57,262 nt of DNA, filler included, from Squatina squatina (GCA_031763465.1; 3 parts of 3 records of this genome joined end to end with filler, not necessarily neighbours in it); one strand, 5' to 3'; positions 3,421 to 21,399 are shown, counted from the whole stretch's first letter. The notes: generated from the letters alone by a model not told the origin. Program-made: numbers and translations.

Positions 3421-3445
3421 AACAGCAATATCAGAAGCCACTAAC

Positions 3446-3522
3446 CTGTAATAGGTTCCAAACCAGTTGAGGGGTGTGTAAAGCTGAATAATGTAAGTGC
3501 CAAACAGGACATAGTCACCAAC
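3446..3522 (-). CDS. ABCB6: ABCB6 internal exon (77 nt)
   Basis: ctag|...|gttag boundaries; encodes [26 protein letters not shown], almost identical to vertebrate ABCB6 TM6. Confidence 0.95.
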
Positions 3523-3782
3523 CTAGGCAGAAACAAGGATACGCATTCAATTACACTTTAGAGATTTTCAATAACGTGATCCACGGGACAGGGAACAGAT
3601 CGAAGGGACAGGGCCGGAGGTAGACGGGACGGGCCGTCAGTTGGAGAGAACTCATTGTAAGATCTATGGGACAAGGTGCAAAGCACACAAAATGGGGTGA
3701 AATACACAGAAGTTGCATCTACTGAAAATGGAAACTTTGGTTTGAATTTCAGCACTGGCCCAGAGTGTGAGAAGCCACTTAC

Positions 3783-3908
3783 TTTAAACTTTTTCTCTGT
3801 GACAAAGTAGGCACAGAGCAGTGATCCAGCAAGAAGCCCGAGCCCAATGATCACGTTCTGTGATTGGTTTAGAAGCGCGAGACTGGCACTCGTTTTCCAT
3901 TCTGCCAC
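3783..3908 (-). CDS. ABCB6: ABCB6 internal exon (126 nt)
   Basis: tttag|...|gtaagt boundaries; encodes [42 protein letters not shown]; phase 0 to 0, in frame with its neighbours. Confidence 0.95.
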
Positions 3909-4913
3909 CTAAACAGAAGTAATATTGAGAGGCGTGAGCAACAGATCCTGCTCCAGGAACCAGTGTGAATGAACCAAGGATATCAATCCACCTAATGCTC
4001 AACTTCACAAGAATGGTCTGGCACTTGGTGAGTGTTTCGTACATCCTTGTCTGCCAAAAGCTGCTTTTATACTGGTTGGCATGAGGCTTGGATTAACACT
4101 GTGCATACCGAGACCCCAAACTCACTTCATGTAGGACCCTTACAACCGCCGGAGAGAGAGGAGACATTTCTCTGTGGGAACTGCATTCTCCTCGCCATAT
4201 CCCACGGACAACTGCACCATCACAAATTCCTCAGCTGCCAATGGCACTTCAACGCTGCACCTCATACAGTGCAACAGACGGACAACACCGCAAAAAGGGA
4301 CAGAATGCAACAAAAAAGGAGCTGAACTTGGCATTTTACTGTGACAGGAAAAGGGCATTTTTTTTTCATTTGTGTCACGTTCTTTCAGACACAGTACAGA
4401 CGGGGTCAAAAATCAGTTTAACCCCACTGATTTATCCCATCGCCTTCTCAAGTTAGGAAAGGTCATGAGGGCGCCAGGAAGCTAATATACACGAGGTTAG
4501 GGGTTTCTGTGCGACCCCTGGGTTAGCTGCGAATGTCCTAGCTATGGTGGCAAATAAAGACACACTGCGGCTCAATGCAAGTAAAGGGCTCACCCGCGAG
4601 AGTGCTCCGTGATGCTGAGCCCGAGAAAAATATCTGGAGTAAAACTCCAACAAGTTACATTNNNNNNNNNNNNNNNNNNNNNNNNNNNNNNNNNNNNNNN
4701 NNNNNNNNNNNNNNNNNNNNNNNNNNNNNNNNNNNNNNNNNNNNNNNNNNNNNNNNNNNNNNNNNNNNNNNNNNNNNNNNNNNNNNNNNNNNNNNNNNNN
4801 NNNNNNNNNNNNNNNNNNNNNNNNNNNNNNNNNNNNNNNNNNNNNNNNNNNNNNNNNNNNNNNNNNNNNNNNNNNNNNNNNNNNNNNNNNNNNNNNNNNN
4901 NNNNNNNNNNNNN

Positions 4914-4992
4914 GGAGCTGGAGGAGGCGCAGACGCAGACCCATGTGCCGGGAGCCAGCGGAGGCGCAGACCCATATGCCGGGAGCCGGTGG
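4914..4992. repeat. About 31-bp GC-rich tandem repeat at a gap edge
   Basis: ggaggcgcagacccatrtgccgggagcc units; agacccat occurs at 4937 and 4968. Confidence 0.7.
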
Positions 4993-5081
4993 CACGGCTG
5001 TGGAGTTAAACCAATGTAGAAGGAGCTCAGCCATTCCGCAGATTTGTCAAGATTCAGAAGTCCTTCTCCGGACGCTCTTAC

Positions 5082-5147
5082 CTGATACTTCAGTATGGCA
5101 TCATTGAAACGGTTCACCTCATAACCCTCAGCATTGTAATACTTCAC
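5082..5147 (-). CDS. ABCB6: ABCB6 internal exon (66 nt)
   Basis: ttcag|...|gtaag boundaries; encodes VKYYNAEGYEVNRFNDAILKYQ. Confidence 0.95.
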
Positions 5148-5664
5148 CTGAAGGGAAAGAAAAGTGAGGTCAGTTTTGTGACGCCAGCAATACACAAATG
5201 AGAAATACGACACTTGGGTTCTCACCAGCAAACAAGTGGATCCATATGCACTTTGACTGAAGCAGTCAGATGGATCTTCAATTGGTGCACTGCCAACAGA
5301 CAGGCTTTGCATACACAATAATTTATTGTACTCCAAAATTTCATTGTGTAGGTCTCTAGGTGGAGAGCGAGGAAAAGAAAAACAGGCCTTATCCCACTAT
5401 TGTACTGCGTCCAAGTACTTCAAACAGTGAACTATTCTTGGAGTACAGCAACTGTTATGTAGGTAATGAGTTGACTGACCAGTTAATCTGATTTGGTGAT
5501 GTTGGTTCAGGGAGGACTGTTGGCCAGGATATTCGAGGGATGATTCAACGCTCTTAGGCAAAGCTACACCGGACAGAAGCACAAGTCATGAAAATTGAAC
5601 CTACATCTTTGTCCTGCATTCCCTTCAAATGCTGCTCCCCACTGGGAGCGCAGGACCACTCTTG

Positions 5665-8559: not shown

Positions 8560-8937
8560 NNNNNNNNNNNNNNNNNNNNNNNNNNNNNNNNNNNNNNNNN
8601 NNNNNNNNNNNNNNNNNNNNNNNNNNNNNNNNNNNNNNNNNNNNNNNNNNNNNNNNNNNTATTTTGTAATGAAAAATAGGCGAGAACACAAACACAGGAA
8701 TAAGCAGGCTGGCCTGTAATAAAGCAAAGTAAAATAAAATAAAATAAAATACAGCTAAAAGAAGCTAGTGCATTGGGTTTTAAATTGCATTAAGCTCCAA
8801 CTGGTAAGTTGCAGTTACAAAGAATGAAGCTGCACTGAGCTTGTTTGCTCTGCATTATTCCACAGGACAGTCAGGTTCCTGCAAGTAGGGGTGGTCAGCA
8901 TTGATCTTGCTGTCAAGGAGGGGAAAAAAAATCAGGC

Positions 8938-9009
8938 TGCGTCAGTTTTCTTTGGGGCTGCTGTTTGGTATAAATAGGACTCTGCAGCCCAGGTTCCGCA
9001 CACAGCCAT
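8938..9009 (+). promoter_or_regulatory. NEFL: NEFL-like core promoter: CRE-like TGCGTCA (8938-8944), TATAAATA (8969-8976), 5' UTR start ccgcacacagccat
   Basis: The motifs are seen directly, immediately upstream of an NEFL-like head. The TATAAATAGG...ccgcacacagccat arrangement resembles the mammalian NEFL promoter as I recall it (not verified). Confidence 0.7.
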
Positions 9010-9019
9010 NNNNNNNNNN

Positions 9020-9477
9020 TACGGGGACAGTCCTGTGCCCAGGAGCTACGGAACTGTCCAGCATTTCAGGAGCAACTATGGAGGCAGCCTCAAGCCTGCC
9101 TACAGCGCCTACTCTTCGCCCACCTTCTCGGCCAGGAAAGCCCACAGCGTCTCGTCCGCCTTGCTGTCCTCGCTGGACACCTTCGACCTGAGCCAAGCCA
9201 GCGCGGTGAGCAGCGAGTTCAAGGCGGTGCGGACCCAGGAGAAAGCCCAGCTCCAGGACCTCAACGACCGCTTCGCCAAGTACATCAACAACACCATCCT
9301 CAGCCTCATGCGCAAGAACAAGGAGCTGCTGGCCGAGCTCAAGCAGGCGGAGAAGGAGGAGACCGGCCGCGTCGAGGCCATCTTCCAGAAGGCCAGGAAC
9401 GACCTGAAGGCGCGGCTCGAGGAGCAGCAGAAGGAGCTCAATTGCCTCAAGGCGGATAAAGAAAAGTACAAGAAAAG
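9020..9477 (+). CDS. Intermediate filament exon 1 (5' truncated by gap): NEFL-like head and coil 1A start, followed by a divergent coil 1A/L1/1B
   Basis: Open frame YGDSP...FDLSQASAVSSEFKAVRTQEKAQLQDLNDRFA is NEFL-like and continues as KYINNTILSLMRKNKELLAELKQ...YKKR; phase-2 donor AAAAG|gtgggg; strong GC3 bias. Confidence 0.85.
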
Positions 9478-9574
9478 GTGGGGCCTGGGGAGAAGGCGAA
9501 GGAGCTGGAGGAAGAGAGGAGAGAGATTGGGTAGAGGTTTCTGACATTAACAACGCGCTGGCAATAGTGGTTTC

Positions 9575-9700
9575 TAACCCTAACTTCTGACCCCGAATCC
9601 CAACTCTGACCCCGAATCCCAACCCTAACCTCTGACCCCGAATCCCAACCCTAACCTCTGACCCCTAATCCCCAACACGTAACCTCTGACTGCAAATCCT
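9575..9700. repeat. 26-bp minisatellite containing CCCTAA (aaccctaacctctgaccccgaatccc)
   Basis: Units start at 9621 and 9647, with degenerate flanking copies to about 9800. Confidence 0.85.
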
Positions 9701-10654
9701 GGCCCCCTGATTGCTATCCCAAACCTCTAACCCGTGATTGCTACCCGAAACCTCTGACAGCTATTCCCAGCCCCTAAGCTCTGACCCATAATCACAACTC
9801 CTCATCTCAGCCCCAGGACATCGCTGCAGGAATTCCGCAAATCCAAGGATGAGGGGCGACTTGATAGAGGTTTATAAGANNNNNNNNNNNNNNNNNNNNN
9901 NNNNNNNNNNNNNNNNNNNNNNNNNNNNNNNNNNNNNNNNNNNNNNNNNNNNNNNNNNNNNNNNNNNNNNNNNNNNNNNTAGTTTCCTTGATTTAGATTC
10001 AGGATGCTCGTCTCAGAATCAACTACATCACTCTCCATCTTAATAAAGAATTCTATCATATTATGGCCCCAGTGGGCCTCGCACAACAAGACTGTAAAGC
10101 AACTTGGGATGTCCTGAGGTTATGAAAGATGCTATTTAAATGCAATCTTTCTGCTTTTTTTCTGAAAATTGGCAGTTGGAGACATTCAGGAAATTGATAT
10201 TTTGTACAGGATTGCCCTGCTGTATTCCTAAATGGAGGCTGCCCCATTATCCCTTTTCATTAAATCACAACAGGGGACTTCTGGAAAAAACGTCTGTCCT
10301 CTGACTGCCTCTCTACAATTATTTTAAAGCTTTCGACAAGCATAACAAGTAACTGCTGAGAGACACATCTCTCCTTGTACCATCTATGATCCAGGTCCAA
10401 ACACTCTTTTAATGTTTAATATGGAATGCTTTTAGGTAACATAAGTATAACAATTATTATACTGTCTTGTACATTAGCACATTTAGACAAGATGTCAGTG
10501 TTCACCATTTTAACGTATATATAAGCAAAAACTGCTGTAAAAACTCAGCAGGTCNNNNNNNNNNNNNNNNNNNNNNNNNNNNNNNNNNNNNNNNNNNNNN
10601 NNNNNNNNNNNNNNNNNNNNNNNNNNNNNNNNNNNNNNNNNNNNNNNNNNNNNN

Positions 10655-10930
10655 CAAGCCGTCATCAATACTCTGCCGTGATCTATTTAAATGTGCCGGT
10701 TCTCCCACAATCCTCTGCTTTGTTCTATTTAAATGTGCCGGTTCTCCCACAATCCTCTGCCGTGGTCTATTTAAATGTGCCGGTTCTCCCACAATACTCT
10801 GCCGTGGTCTATTTAAATGTGCCGGTTCTCCCACAATCCTCTGCAATGGTCTATTTAAATGTACCAGTTCTCCCACAATCCTCTGCCTCACTCTGTTTCA
10901 ATGTGCCGGTGCTCCCGCGATGCTCTGCCA
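10655..10930. repeat. 42-bp minisatellite (ctatttaaatgtgccggttctcccacaatcctctgccgtggt), about 6 copies
   Basis: Period 42 (10683, 10725, 10767...); explains the 14-aa repeat ORFs on both strands. Confidence 0.95.
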
Positions 10931-11341
10931 ATTTGTTGAGGTAAAACTGTTGGCCAGGACACTGAGGGAGCTATGAAATATTCTTTGAATAGTTTCATGG
11001 GATCTTTAACATCCAAGTGAGCCAAAGCAGATAGAGAGGGCCTTAGTTTAACATCTCCAAAGGAAACGCCTCCGATAATGCTGCAGACCAGCAGCACTGC
11101 TCTGGAGTGTTAGCCTAGATTGATCTGAATTCTTCGATCTATAACTTTCTGATCAGAAGCTACTAAGCCAACCTGACACATATCTATGCTGCTTTCTTTT
11201 CGTCAGCCATGTTCAGTTAACAAAACAGTTTAGTGAAACTGGTGTCACAGTTTTGCCACAATATTTGGTTGGATGTAATAAAAGCAAAGTTCTAATATAT
11301 GTAACACATCTGTAATTGGTGTATTTGGTGTCTTCCGAAAG

Positions 11342-11535
11342 GATGAATTAATGAAGAACTCACTGCTTGAAAAGGACAAAGACATAAACAGACAGAGAGA
11401 ATGCAGTAAAGTACTGGAAAAGAGGATTGTGCGGCACACGAATGAATATCAGGAGCTATTAAATGTAAAGACACAACTTGAGCAAGAGATTGCTGCTTAC
11501 AAAAACTTACTGGGTCAAGTGGAAAAGAAAGCAAG
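11342..11535 (+). CDS. Divergent intermediate filament coil-2B-end exon (194 nt, phase 0 to 2)
   Basis: gaaag|GATGAA...GCAAG|gttagt; encodes DELMKNSLLEKDKDINRQRECSKVLEKRIVRHTNEYQELLNVKTQLEQEIAAYKNLLGQVEKKAR, a variant of the IF helix-termination motif [29 protein letters not shown]. Confidence 0.8.
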
Positions 11536-11714
11536 GTTAGTATTGTCTTAAGCAGATCTAGGAAATGTCATCACGTGGACTTTATTTGTGGCTTTTTAAA
11601 TGGTTGTTTTCTTATGAAATTGTGGAAGTAGACTCTGTGGTGTGAAACACATATACAAGGAACAGTGCAGTGACTGTTGAACAGCCTGTAATGTGATGGG
11701 ACCAACTGACAGGT

Positions 11715-12233
11715 GAGTGTGACGACCTTTGAGCTTAAGGCAACACGCAACCAAGTGTGGCACTTAGGAGCCCCAGTAAATCTAAAGTCAATGGGGATCA
11801 GGGGAAAACCCTTCAGCTGCTGGAGGCATGCACAAAGGTTGTGGTCGTTGGAGGCCAATCGTCTCAGTCCCAGAACATTGCTGCAAGAGATCCTCAGGGC
11901 AGCGCCCTAGGTCCTTCTACCTTCAGCTGCTTCATCAATGACCTTCGCTCCTCATAAGGTCAGAAGTGGGGATGTTTGCTGATGATTGCACAGTATTCAG
12001 CTCCATTTGCAATTCCACAAATAATGAAGCAGCCCATGCCTACAATCTGCCATTACCTGAACACCATCTAGGCTTGGGCTGATAAGTGGTAAGTAACATT
12101 CGTGCCAGGCAATGACTATCTCCAACAACAGAAAGTCTAACCACCTCCCCATGACATTACCATCAACATCTTGGAGGTCACCATTGACCAGAAACTCAAC
12201 TGGAGCAGCCAAATAATAGCTGAGGCAACTGGA
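11715..12233 (+). mobile_element. Degenerate CR1-like RT fragment
   Basis: PQGSALGPSTFSCFINDL followed by mFADDct, the RT motifs of CR1/L2 elements, with frameshifts. Confidence 0.8.
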
Positions 12234-14194
12234 NNNNNNNNNNNNNNNNNNNNNNNNNNNNNNNNNNNNNNNNNNNNNNNNNNNNNNNNNNNNNNNNNNN
12301 NNNNNNNNNNNNNNNNNNNNNNNNNNNNNNNNNAAGTTTGGCGCTCGATTGAATCGAACATGTGAAGGTTGAGCGTAAATGTCAGACTTTCGTTAATTAA
12401 TTTTATGGTCTTGGTCAATGATGCCACTTAGAAGATATTTCCTTCTACCTTGACTGACGGCGACGAACTACGATCACATAATTTTTGCCACGTACGTATC
12501 ACCATACCATAATTTAAGTATTATTACATATTTGAAATGACTCCGTGCAGTGATATTTAAATCCATTTTATTGATTTGATGGGTTGGTTTTATGTGTTTT
12601 CCTCATTTGTGATTGGTAGCATTTTCTACCCATTGGATAACAAATTAGCAGATGGTTATTTAAACCAATCAGAAAGGTGTATATAACTTTTTATAATTCT
12701 GCATATGTGTGAAGCATGCAATTGATATGCTATATGCAAGTATTTCTTTTAAATTATGTGAGTATTTAGCTTTAAACATTACATTCAAGGAGAAAATTAT
12801 TGTGGGGAGGGAGTAATTTGTATTAAATGTGGTCTTCAATCAAGTGCAGAAGTGGTATGTTGTCATTTTAACGTCCTCAAAGATGAGGGTCTGATTTGTA
12901 CTTGTGTGAATGCAGTAAATTTTATAGTACTTTACAATGTCCAACTCCACGATAATCTTTCATTCATTACTTAACACTGATCTCTGTTGTGTTGTTCTGC
13001 AAGGTTGCATATATAGTCAAGTTACTAGGTTTCAAGAAATAATTCAATGAAGGACAAGATTTGAGTGATTTTGACCCACATTGATATAACCACAGCACGT
13101 CATGGGAAGGGAAGGGGCATTTCTTGAGATTCAAAACCGTAGCCTCAAATCCTTTGTGTTTGGACTTTACAGTTATAATGGTCATAAGAACAAAATCATT
13201 AATTTGATAGGCTACTGTAAGCCAAGTTCTGAAGTAGCTGAGTCAGAGGATGGCATTTTAACAATCAATAAATAACTATATTTGTAAGCCATCGGAGCTC
13301 CTCTGGGTTATTAGTGATAATCCACATTTTAAAGCAACAGACTAAAAATAATTTCAAATCCAAAGCACAATTTTTGTTGCATCAAGTAAAAGAAAGCTTT
13401 CTGTTAATAAAATGACAATGTAAATCCATGTGAACTAGTCCTTTTTCTTGATGTCATCAATGGATAACCTATCCATGAGACAATAACCTGGATATTAAAG
13501 GAAAAGAATTAAGATTAATGTCTTGTATCCTGTCTGTAGTTTTAAAAACATTAGCAAATTATGTCTTGTTTCCTGTACAATGCCTATTCTGGGCGGGAAA
13601 CACAGCACTATTACATTAAGGAGTGCACCTCGCAACATACAGGGAGGTCCAATCCCCATATTGACATGACCAGCTGACGGCTAAATGCAGCCTTTCACTC
13701 TGGAACCTCGTTGAAAATCACCCCATTTCTAAACTTACTTGAAATTAATTTACACTACTGCCTGCTTCTCCAAAGATTTAAATTTCACCCATCGTACAGA
13801 CAGGTCTGCCCTTGCGTGGACAGAATTGAAGTTCAGCAGATATAGGTAGCAAAAGGTTTAAGAATTGCTAGTGTTAAAAATTAAATCAATGCAGTGTCAG
13901 ATCCAAATGGTGTTATTTTCCATTCCTTTTTGTCACATCGCTCCATTTAATATGACAAAACCTCTTCTGACAAAGTCAATACGTTTTGGGTCCAAACTGA
14001 GCAGGGAGAACTTTAATGGAATGGTTTCTTACAATTCCCAACAGCGGAGTGCAATGTATGATATAGTTTCAGATTATTGACACTGATGCACGGACTACTG
14101 ACAGAGAAAATGTCAGGAAAAATTCATGTTGAGAGTTACACTCCACCAAATAATTTATATAACGTGTCGGTTTAATTTTCTTTGGAGTCTTCAT

Positions 14195-14307
14195 GTTGTT
14201 TCTGCTTTTTCTCTAGGTAAGTTGTGACGCTGGAGCTCTCTCGTCCTGGAGGAGTAGAATTTGAGACGGGTCGGTGCTCTTGCTTTGTACAGCCAAGTAT
14301 CGTAAGA
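14195..14307 (+). other. Candidate recursive splice site (polypyrimidine-AG|GTAAGT) with an 85-nt stop-containing exon at 14217-14301
   Basis: ttgtttctgctttttctctag|gtaagt; downstream donor c|gtaaga at 14302; stops in all three frames. Confidence 0.35.
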
Positions 14308-15020
14308 GTGATCAACATGTTCAAATTGACATTTGAAAATTTGTAAATTAATGTTTTTTAATTCCAAATATACGTTTGTTGATTGTTACATTGTGCACTA
14401 TTATAATGGCAGGTACATTGTCACAGACTAAGTCCAGACTAAATGCAGTTCAGTTGCATGGAGGGTAGCACCGTCTGTGCACCCTCAAATGTCAAAGCTG
14501 TAACTTGCTCAAATTAGGGATCGGATTTTGGATCATGCAGAGTTATCCACAGTGTTCAGTTATGAGTAATATCTGGCATTTAAAAAATATTTAAAAATAA
14601 TTATCTGAAGGAACTAATCGGAATCTGAATGATTTGCAGGGAGATTTTTTTTTCTTTAACTGTACAGATGGTTTGGGTTTACACAAGGTGAAGGGAAGAA
14701 ACACTAACTTTAATATACATGGAAAGGTACTATGTACTGAATAGCAGATAGTCCTTCAGAGTATTAAAATGGTTATCTTCCTGTTTTGTCCCAGTTGTGA
14801 CTAGCTTTTTGCTGTGTATTTTGCATTGTACTAACTGTAAACCCTTAGCCTGTATGACATGTGAAGCAAAATGACAGTACATCTAGTACAATTGCTGGGG
14901 TGAAAGCAAAGTGAAACTGAACTATTCTGGTTACATTTAATAAATGTACTATGAATTACACATCTTGAGTATAGTAAATGTATTTAAAACTTCAAAATTA
15001 ACTATTTTATTGCTTTCTAG

Positions 15021-15055
15021 GGACTACTCTACTCAGCCATCAATAACTGATAAAG
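15021..15055 (+). CDS. Candidate 35-nt micro-exon (phase 2 to 1; DYSTQPSITDK), possibly the IF tail
   Basis: ttttattgctttctag|...AAAG|gtgtgt; its phase fits the 11342-11535 exon. Confidence 0.35.
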
Positions 15056-15699
15056 GTGTGTATAACTTTAAAGTCAGTTTGATATTAAACTAATGTTCTG
15101 AATTGTATTAACATTTTATTTTTCTTTGTCCAACACATTCATCAGATATCTCTGAGTTACCCCAAATACCAGTTAAATTGTGGGGGGTGGGGGTGACTTG
15201 CAAGGGATGATGTCACATCAAGATAATTTGATGGTGATGACGTCCAGAACAAGGGGTGTTGCCCACATGAACACTTCCTTGCTATGTTGCGTATGATCCC
15301 AAGTGTAAGTTCAGCTTTTACCCCTGCAACAGAAGCCTTTCTTTGTCCTCTTTGCTCAAATTCTTCCAATCTAAACTCAATTTTTTCAAGTAAGACATGT
15401 CTGGAAAGTCTATGATATTTGCTTCTTTTAACTTTCTTCTTCCTTCTATACGCTGTCCTACGTTCTCTTCGTCCTCACTGTGTTGCAATCCAAACATAGC
15501 GCATTTTTTCTTGCTCTAACTTATTCTCAGGATTTAATTTAAAATGTTTACCACCTTCAGTCTTTTCTTCATCATACAGTCTACAAGGTTTTGAAATGCA
15601 TGTTTGGCTCCACCTAGTTACTTTGTTTTCATCATCCATTGCCTTACTCCATATTGTCTTCCAGAATGACATACAAGGCGTTCTCCATCCACAACGTCA

Positions 15700-16300
15700 T
15701 AATGCAGTTAACCTCTCCTGGCCCTGAAAGAAATCTGCCTCAATAGTGAATCCTTTCCCGTTACTGAAGCCACCCTGTGGATAAGTATTTTGCATACGGC
15801 AATGGCATCACTGTCATCACCAAATTCCATCTTGCTCTCTTGCCCTATTCCTTTGGTATCATTTCCTCCTTCAAGTATCTTAGCCTCCTCCATCTTTCCC
15901 AACTGTCTTTCAAAGTATTCATCATTTACAAGCCTCCCAAGTTTCGTAGTAATTTCCTCACTGAGATTTTCTCTCTGAACCTTGGCTTCTCATCCTTTGC
16001 AATTCCAACCTACATCTAAGTTCCCTGCTACTCTACTGTAGCTTCTCTGCCTTCCTCTTTGCACTGGAAGCTCAACCTTCACTTAAACTTCCTACCTATA
16101 TCCTTCCGACCCACTTGATCTCATCTTTGCAAATGGCCTCTCCAGCTCCTATGTCTCAAGCAATAAAGCTATCGCTAAGCACTTCTTTATTGTTCTTACC
16201 ACTTACATTTTCTTGCTACCTTCCAACCCCATCACGTTGGTCTTCACCCCTGGAAAAAACTTTGTGCAGCTCTCTCATCAGCTCAAGTTCAAACTTCTTC
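15700..16300 (-). mobile_element. Possible degenerate Ty3/Gypsy gag remnant
   Basis: Fragmented minus-strand frames (EKEKKFELELMRE, KEVLSDSFIA, CKEEGREA) weakly resemble fish Gypsy gag; many stops. Confidence 0.3.
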
Positions 16301-16615
16301 TCCTTCTCTTCGGCAGTCCCTCGAGGTCGAGGATGACTTGCTTCCGCTCCGGAGTTGTGGGTTCTGAGGTGACTAAGTAGTCCTATACTGGATCCACAAA
16401 CCATACCATAGGTAGGGCAGGTGGTATTTGATTGGCCGAGAGGATGGGATGCACGGGTTTCCGTACGCTCCTTCCGCTGCCTGTGCTTGGCCTCCAAGTG
16501 TTCCCGCTGGAGAACCTCGAAGTGGTTGGCGCCTTCACGGATGCTTCTCCTCCAGTTCGGGTGGTCTTGGGCCAGAGATTCCCATGAGTCGGTGGGGATG
16601 TTACATTTTTTCAGG
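16300..16615 (-). mobile_element. RTE-clade LINE 3' fragment
   Basis: EAKHRQRKER...NTTCPTYGMVCGSSIGLLSHLRTH...SHPRP; same family as 2156-2296. Confidence 0.7.
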
Positions 16616-21360: not shown

Positions 21361-21399
21361 CTATAAAATAAAACACAGACCATTTCAAAAGCAAAGTAC

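Follow-up and report, generated by a model that had tools for sequence, protein, structure and literature searches.

An apparently undescribed short-rod intermediate filament of cartilaginous fishes, seen through a faulty Squatina squatina assembly

The DNA studied here (the window) is a stretch of 57,262 nucleotides, filler included, of the Squatina squatina assembly GCA_031763465.1, in which three exons on the plus strand encode parts of an unusual intermediate filament (IF) protein. In the reading proposed here, to which we give a probability of about 0.6, these exons belong to paralogue A (gene A) of an unnamed IF family of cartilaginous fishes, whose rod of 279 residues is free of the stutter and nearly neutral, and whose members are predicted to form short coiled-coil dimers and polymers of their own, the NEFL head that precedes the first exon having likely been misjoined to it. 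The family is a real and conserved IF variant, seen through a faulty assembly and apparently undescribed. Aimed literature searches, which included six accessions (four from RefSeq, one from GenBank and one from UniProt) and whose scope left out supplementary tables and most subscription journals, found no description of it, and a term search of the retrieved portions of PMC8733776 and PMC11266302 returned no mention of it.

Three exons of one short-rod gene

The 3' part of exon 1 (9255..9477, plus strand) encodes coil 1A with one inserted residue, the linker L1 and a coil 1B that is one heptad short, and it ends in phase 2 at a GT donor (9478). Exon 6 (11342..11535, plus strand; 194 nt, phase 0 to 2, flanked by AG and GT) encodes late coil 2, from which 11 stutter-holding residues are gone, and carries the end motif AYKNLLGQVEKKAR. 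Exon 7 (15021..15055, plus strand; 35 nt, phase 2 to 1, also between AG and GT) starts the tail with DYSTQPSITDK. The lengths and phases that a first-pass annotation had given for the last two exons were found as described, and the motifs that it had singled out, YINNTILSL and AYKNLLGQVE, lie at 9281 and 11495, both on the plus strand. The one-residue insertion that it had claimed for coil 1A is borne out by the spacing between two anchors, which is 12 residues in 13 of 13 family rows and 11 in all three type III rows (desmin-, vimentin- and peripherin-like), and the stretch from LLAEL to the exon end measures, as stated, 51 amino acids, the matching desmin stretch having 58 (59 if started one residue earlier).

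All three exons are matched by the same full-length predicted protein of a sawshark (P0014), with 65 of the 67 residues after DLNDRFA identical in exon 1, 64 of 65 in exon 6 and 11 of 11 in exon 7 (tblastn E values of 5e-41, 7e-35 and 0.004), and therefore they are parts of one gene. The exon 7 peptide is also found, 11/11, in P0016, P0021 and P0033. The linkage of the pieces, initially only proposed, is thus carried by full-length predicted orthologues that contain all three of them. A profile search of 3,399 six-frame open reading frames (ORFs) of the window recovered no further piece of gene A, its own head and exons 2-5 and 8-9 being absent; these exons presumably lie in N gaps, of which this fragmented assembly has 39 (6,432 N).

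Absence of six of the nine exons from the window might also be expected of a decaying pseudogene, or of unrelated fragments lying side by side. This explanation is already largely refuted and deserves hardly any credence, given that the frames are open, the splice sites canonical and the identity to an intact predicted protein 97-100%, and that intact full-length models exist in sharks, skates and rays. In a comparison of exon 1 with the contigs of two relatives, 73 codons show 8 synonymous and 2 non-synonymous changes for one of them (dN/dS 0.054) and 54 codons show 7 and 5 for the other (dN/dS 0.153), so that the range is 0.05-0.15, and neither a ratio near 1 nor a disabling mutation was seen. 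The gene is under purifying selection, its divergence lying on the stem and its sequence being conserved now. Its description as fast-evolving holds for the stem branch only (1.2 changes per site) and fails for the present day, when the gene A rods of sawshark and skate are 85% identical; the corresponding value for NEFL, between sawshark and the skate Amblyraja, is 90%. The A and B proteins of a skate (P0140, P0330) are also found in Logan contigs of sequencing runs, which for proteins of multi-exon genes implies spliced RNA, and it is only in this way that we infer the transcription of A and B.

The rod comprises 278-280 residues in all 47 full-length family rows, versus 310 in desmin measured with the same ruler (108 of the 343 proteins compared were left out of the comparison of rod, charge and head as partial or isoforms). 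A rod of 279 residues is 31 short of that of desmin, the difference being made up of one residue gained in coil 1A, seven lost in coil 1B and 25 lost in coil 2; the anchor spacings divide this last loss into seven (A) or eight (B) residues of early coil 2 and 18 of late coil 2. Exon by exon, in residues and relative to P0172, which we take to be desmin because of its likeness to that protein, the lengths are 73/79 for the rod part of exon 1, 20/20 for exon 2, 32/32 for exon 3, 53/54 for exon 4, 29/42 for exon 5, 65/74 for exon 6 and 11/14 for exon 7.

In each of the 13 aligned family members the late coil-2 anchors are 63 residues apart, which makes nine heptads exactly; the distance in 211 of 233 other IFs is 81, or eleven heptads and four residues. 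In the family, the best hydrophobic phase for a/d does not change across the deletion (0.60, 0.75); in 8 canonical IFs it moves by four. The spacing of 63 and the lack of a phase shift indicate that the stutter is absent: the loss in coil 2 removes it and leaves the heptad phase unbroken. According to the heptad test, the a/d core is kept across each deletion.

The net charge of the rod lies between -3 and +3 in the family, versus a median of -16 in 188 other IFs. The head holds 24-27 residues in A and 34-41 in B, three of the 47 rows, which are models with long upstream extensions, being exceptions in its length; its charge is -4 to +2 in 44 of the 47 rows, and an SSYRRTFGG-like motif was found in none of these full-length rows. 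Throughout the family the rod ends in YK.LL.QVE[KR]K, which departs from the TYRKLLEGEE consensus and keeps its Y and LL, and is followed by a tail of 30-49 amino acids (49 in gene A). An AlphaFold monomer model shows one helix (17-309) with disordered ends, at a mean pLDDT of 81 and a pTM of 0.29, and is uninformative on the linkers. Together with the heptad core, it agrees with the plan of the IF superfamily, a long coiled-coil helix between head and tail, from which the family departs in having no stutter in coil 2B. The divergent, shortened rod reported in the first-pass annotation is thus real, and the extent of the change had been understated, as 31 residues and the stutter are lost, the rod is neutral and the head is short. 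Two counts weigh against the singularity of these features: three of the 22 exceptions in anchor spacing among the other IFs (P0186, P0245, P0196) are also multiples of seven, possibly owing to faulty models, and six of the 188 other IFs have a rod charge of -4 or above.

Orthologues of gene A, predicted proteins of about 353 amino acids, are present in 20 elasmobranch species, and paralogue B was found in 19 by cluster look-ups. Callorhinchus milii has four copies in the pattern (A1,A2)(B1,B2), namely A1 (fragments P0134, P0168 and P0332), A2 (P0123), B1 (P0125) and B2 (P0325); the three copies with known records are on records of 31, 7.6 and 81 Mb. The automatic names that RefSeq and UniRef give to the family conflict (vimentin-, desmin-, GFAP- and peripherin-like, neuronal IF, uncharacterized), and the predictions XP_078260468.1, XP_048455500.1, XP_055487932.1 and XP_007908309.1 are orthologues or paralogues of gene A under such "-like" names.

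Two profile searches, each scoring 8,000 candidates, gave 33 and 38 matches, of which 30 and 36 belong to the family, every named one coming from a cartilaginous fish; the other three and two are type I keratins or keratin-like IFs with E values of 7e-10 or weaker. A HMMER search was also made against 1.84 billion representatives, in whose clusters a relative more than 50% identical could sit unseen. Among the best 150 of its 336 matches there are eight family pieces, and the best non-family protein reaches 78.5 bits, versus 719 for a full-length member. With a wider family profile, no full-length member falls below 378 bits, and no other IF exceeds 103. No family member outside the cartilaginous fishes was found by the two profile searches or among those best 150 HMMER matches, and the suggestion that the gene is specific to chondrichthyans holds in the databases searched. 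In a 64-row tree, A, B and the elephant-shark copies form one clade with a support of 100/100 and a stem of 1.18 changes per site. The full-length members score above the cut-off of 40 for Pfam Filament (PF00038), with 110 bits for P0014, 85 for P0127, 88 for P0123 and 79 for P0325, and so belong to the IF superfamily; single exons of the window reach 31 and 39 bits.

A hagfish "vimentin-like" protein (P0248), which stands next to the family at 81/87, was considered as a relative and rejected. Its indels are different (spacing 74) and its identity is 31-33%, so its position is attributed to long-branch attraction. The zebrafish notochord IF ngs was also considered, and a literature search on it gave unrelated papers only. 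Other divergent type III-like IFs under automatic names are P0194, P0195, P0222, P0191, P0181, the P0211 clade and again P0248, from killifish, newt, axolotl, skate, Xenopus and hagfish; in P0194 the rod is likewise short (288) and near-neutral, but with a stutter-type spacing (67).

Several further observations concern the copies and isoforms of the family. The annotation of two bamboo sharks makes paralogue B a LACTB isoform (P0162, P0163), which suggests that B adjoins LACTB and has been mis-merged with it. Extra copies are suggested by a degenerate family-like contig (X2 record 3, window 9299-9334), by a further record in Hypanus that carries A in a damaged form (P0154) and by a record in Mobula birostris on which A occurs twice (P0027/P0151). 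Predicted isoforms of gene A without exon 4 (53 amino acids, in the region of linker L12) occur in seven species of sharks, skates and rays (P0017, P0019, P0020, P0025, P0028, P0030, P0032), and exon 3 (32 amino acids) is skipped in two (P0022, P0031). This is possibly a conserved alternative splicing that yields still shorter rods.

The NEFL head joined to exon 1

The open frame of exon 1 runs upstream to 9020, and this part of it, overlooked in the first-pass annotation, encodes the head of NEFL (9020..9254, plus strand), which is foreign to gene A and in frame with the short-rod exon. It is preceded by the NEFL promoter and 5' untranslated region (8660..9009, plus strand, with a TATA box at 8969), also foreign to gene A and likely misjoined. 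Among the 79 residues before DLNDRFA, 70 are identical to sawshark NEFL P0003 and 66 to P0004, the best local match to P0014 being 9/32, and the head part scores 39 bits with Pfam Filament_head; after 9280, the rod agrees with NEFL in 14 of 53 residues at best. With the 153-residue exon-1 frame as query, two sets of cartilaginous-fish proteins were retrieved: NEFL, aligned over 91-97% of the query at 51-65% identity, and the short protein of 300-355 residues, aligned over 52-59% at 67-92% identity. DLNDRFA occurs in both sets, and is encoded here by a junction stretch of 25 nt (9255..9279, plus strand) within which the crossover falls; judging from the proteins, the DNA of NEFL is presumably identical over all 25 nt.

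The junction is very probably an assembler error at this 25-nt word common to two IF genes, a reading based on the fact that the DNA of a relative carries the gene's own head upstream of 9255. This was seen in the Logan contigs of four runs (likeness 82): the alignment of contig X2 record 2 begins at 9255 and extends through the intron, and upstream of it the loose end of the contig reads DGLEDGKERF, which are residues 26-35 of P0014. On the other side, contig X9 record 12 matches 8793-9009 with two differences and one gap, and then reads MSTASY, the start of NEFL in P0003-P0006, and the loose ends of other X2 and X8 contigs read as paralogue B. No joint and no contig across 9255-9279 was found in the four runs. 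In addition, in each of the four species whose NEFL clusters have a single member and for which an A record is listed (Rhinoraja, Rhincodon, Narcine and Heterodontus), the records that carry NEFL and A differ in length.

Against the assembler error it must be said that the contigs of X2, X8 and X9, some of which a filter removes, leave the NEFL head (9020-9247) on the other side of the junction uncovered, and that ectopic recombination, which falls in the longest stretch shared by two paralogues, would likewise land in the 25 nt. A fusion that is real in Squatina squatina, in which such recombination at the coil-1A motif would have placed the rod under the NEFL promoter with a basic head, would also account for a join that is in frame, has no stop and leaves the TATA promoter intact. 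It is nevertheless very unlikely, since the contig of the relative has the gene's own head in that place, none of the contigs of the four runs crosses the join, no such fusion is present among the 120 listed matches of the exon-1 frame search, and the assembly, fragmented by its gaps, contains a second implausible join at 21361-21399. There, a DUF4757 exon (21655-21400, minus strand), which we take to be of the LMO7/LIMCH1 type, ends in phase 2 at a distance of 39 nt before a TP73 exon (21360-21174, minus strand) that encodes part of the DNA-binding domain and starts in phase 0; these neighbours are likely a second assembly chimera. Caution is called for with this assembly, which probably merges paralogues at short shared words.

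Gene structure, origin and proposed assembly

The splice sites of the window, the exon-skipping models P0017, P0020, P0022 and P0031 and the read-through fragments P0166, P0167, P0169 and P0291 give the exon boundaries of the family. These agree with the boundaries of the type III models P0206, P0177, P0175, P0182, P0190, P0214 and P0234, for which textbook exon sizes served as a cross-check. Exon 1 is unbroken, both in the window and in X2 record 2, at the intron sites of type II (P0249, P0288, P0301) and type I (P0237) keratins, and exon 6 is unbroken where the type IV model P0035 shows read-through. As the positions and phases of the introns match those of type III, the gene structure is of type III, in agreement with the phases noted at the outset. 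NEFL, a type IV gene, shares DLNDRFA with gene A, but gene A has introns that are absent from type IV genes and does not have their coil-2B intron.

The family has in common with type III IFs these intron positions and phases through the rod, the lengths of exons 2 and 3 (20 and 32 amino acids), the LNDRFA start of coil 1A and the a/d register of coils 1B and 2; a PDB search matched vimentin alone (E 1.8e-18). In contrast, it differs from them in its rod of 279 versus 310 residues, the missing stutter, the extra residue in coil 1A, a rod charge of about 0 versus -14 to -19 in most type III rows and, in gene A, a rod identity of 32-35%, a head of 25 amino acids without SSYRRTFGG and the end motif YKNLLGQVEKK. 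The family is type III-like in gene structure and not a member of type III, because four defining features are lacking, namely the rod length, the stutter, the basic head motif and the end-of-rod consensus. That the gene is not VIM, DES, GFAP, PRPH or a neurofilament gene is also upheld, its rod identity being 30-35% to each.

Several results weigh against a firmer assignment. The support for joining the family with type III is 84/60 and 82; approximately unbiased (AU) tests do not reject a grouping with type IV (p 0.48) or with keratins (p 0.43); exons 1 and 6 both score slightly higher against type IV than against type III; and the end motif resembles that of type I keratins, whose clusters come first in a feature search of the ESM Atlas that returned generic IF clusters only. 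Sequence by itself does not fix the class, while the introns lie at type III positions, and a type III-like gene is the likely ancestor of the family.

An improbable alternative is that the family comes from a keratin, or from a chordate IF older than type III, and that A and B are an obligate pair like keratins of types I and II. Besides that AU test, this origin would fit the profile searches, whose sole non-family matches are type I keratins, the feature search, and the insertion in coil 1A, which is placed at the type II keratin intron site (the site seen in P0249, P0288 and P0301). The 35-nt tail exon also has the length of exon 8 of type II keratins. However, exon 1 runs without interruption over the intron sites of type II keratins in coil 1A and of type I keratins in coil 1B; exon-3 skipping in P0022 and P0031 shows an intron between exons 2 and 3, which type I keratins are not known to have; and the exon-1 rods of A and B score 82-100 against type III and 60-73 against keratins. 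The charges at positions e and g speak against the obligate pair, A-A being inferior to A-B in none of 8 pairs; this count, although a crude proxy, gives no sign of an obligate heterodimer and lends no support to the co-polymer role suggested in the first-pass annotation.

The rod would quite probably form a parallel coiled-coil dimer, either a homodimer or an A/B heterodimer. At the usual rise per residue, this would be about 4.6 nm short of the normal length. The dimer of cytoplasmic IFs is described as 45 nm long (PMC8466517). A parallel dimer is likely because the a/d core is kept and the e/g pairs are mostly attractive, with ratios of attractive to repulsive pairs in the sawshark that, for coils 1B and 2 respectively, are 8:0 and 8:2 in A-A and 8:0 and 7:2 in A-B. 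The shorter rod could not, on this proposal, pair in register with a rod of 310 residues.

In cytoplasmic IFs, as described in PMC8466517, heads are positively charged and rods mainly acidic. Both charges are gone in this family, which suggests that, with the rod turning neutral, the head could be dispensed with. We consider it an even bet that an arginine-rich head would no longer be required once the rod had lost its acidic charge, and that assembly would be driven by contacts between rods. As to the stutter, its removal blocks elongation in vimentin and promotes bundling in crescentin (PMC3087291, citing Herrmann 1999), and, according to PMC11121635 and PMC3087291, both the stutter and the head motif SSYRRTFGG are needed for the assembly of vimentin. 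From the behaviour of those stutterless proteins, short or bundled polymers in a network of their own would be expected here. Somewhat more tentatively than for the head, it is proposed that without a stutter the family might build a short or laterally bundled polymer, rather than a regular long 10-nm filament, and a network apart from that of canonical IFs. The engineered forms of vimentin and crescentin, with an SAT insertion, share with the family continuous heptads through coil 2B, but they are described as defective and were made by inserting three residues (PMC3087291), whereas in the family 11 residues have been deleted in a form conserved from chimaera to rays.

The main rival to polymers of its own is an accessory role like that of filensin (BFSP1), in which the same gene would form no polymer alone and would co-assemble with a canonical IF, capping or spacing its filaments, as in the pairs filensin-phakinin and nestin-vimentin. 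This is unlikely, though less so than a keratin origin. All 47 full-length rows lack SSYRRTFGG and the stutter is gone, two features that vimentin needs for assembly, and filensin, whose rod has 279 amino acids and whose head has 38, does not build regular filaments and assembles jointly with phakinin (PMC2119801, PMC2290875). That co-assembly also counts against the proposed exclusion from pairing in register, as the rod of phakinin has 311 residues (PMC2119801, PMC2290875), and a mismatch in length therefore does not exclude co-polymers. Compared by its description in PMC2119801, filensin resembles the family in rod length, short head and diverged consensus motifs, but its loss of 29 residues affects coil 2 only and its tail has 438 amino acids, whereas the family shows changes of +1, -7 and -25 residues; a filensin sequence was not recognised among the 343 proteins compared. 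Known accessory IFs have long tails that give them their role, such as those of filensin and of type VI IFs (PMC2075511), and the tail of gene A has 49 amino acids. Type VI IFs (nestin, synemin) differ further in a rod encoded by three exons (PMC2075511), versus six in the family, whose tails measure 30-49 amino acids. Moreover, the loss of the head could be compensated by the neutral rod, and the rod lengths of all paralogues agree to within one residue, as mutual pairing would lead one to expect.

Neighbouring features of the window and significance

On the minus strand, exons of ABCB6 occupy about 3430-5160, the exon near 3783-3911 having a PDB match with an E value of 7e-16. In human, ABCB6 lies near DES, and the true adjacency of ABCB6 to gene A is unsure in this assembly; with ABCB6 as its single anchor, synteny carries no weight here. 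Pfam scans of 16 and 107 ORFs of the window gave, beyond the IF pieces, only P53 and DUF4757, together with a few weak matches below the cut-off. Stop-interrupted frames rich in lysine and glutamate, without a Pfam match, are found at 15160-16300 (minus strand), beside a fragment (16219-16614) that we presume to be LINE-like; they are possibly a decayed retrocopy or mobile element. Tandem repeats are present in the introns of gene A at 9586-9755 and 10666-10929, with periods of 19-27 and 42.

A bolder proposal, which we regard as doubtful, is that the family is an unrecognised class of vertebrate cytoplasmic IFs. A1, A2, B1 and B2 would then be paralogues from whole-genome duplication, so that the family would be older than the jawed vertebrates and would have disappeared from bony vertebrates, its charge-neutral rod would permit polymers without stutter or basic head, and the exon-4-skipping isoform would be a conserved form with a shorter rod and no L12. 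At any rate, vertebrate cytoplasmic IFs are regarded as near-invariant in four features, the length of the rod, its acidic charge, the stutter of coil 2B and the basic charge of the head, and this family has lost all of them together. As these losses have been kept under purifying selection across sharks, rays and chimaeras, they provide a natural test of what filament elongation needs, and the family also tests whether the charge of the head merely offsets that of the rod. For cartilaginous fishes themselves, it is an overlooked cytoskeletal gene family, whose conflicting automatic names could mislead expression studies.

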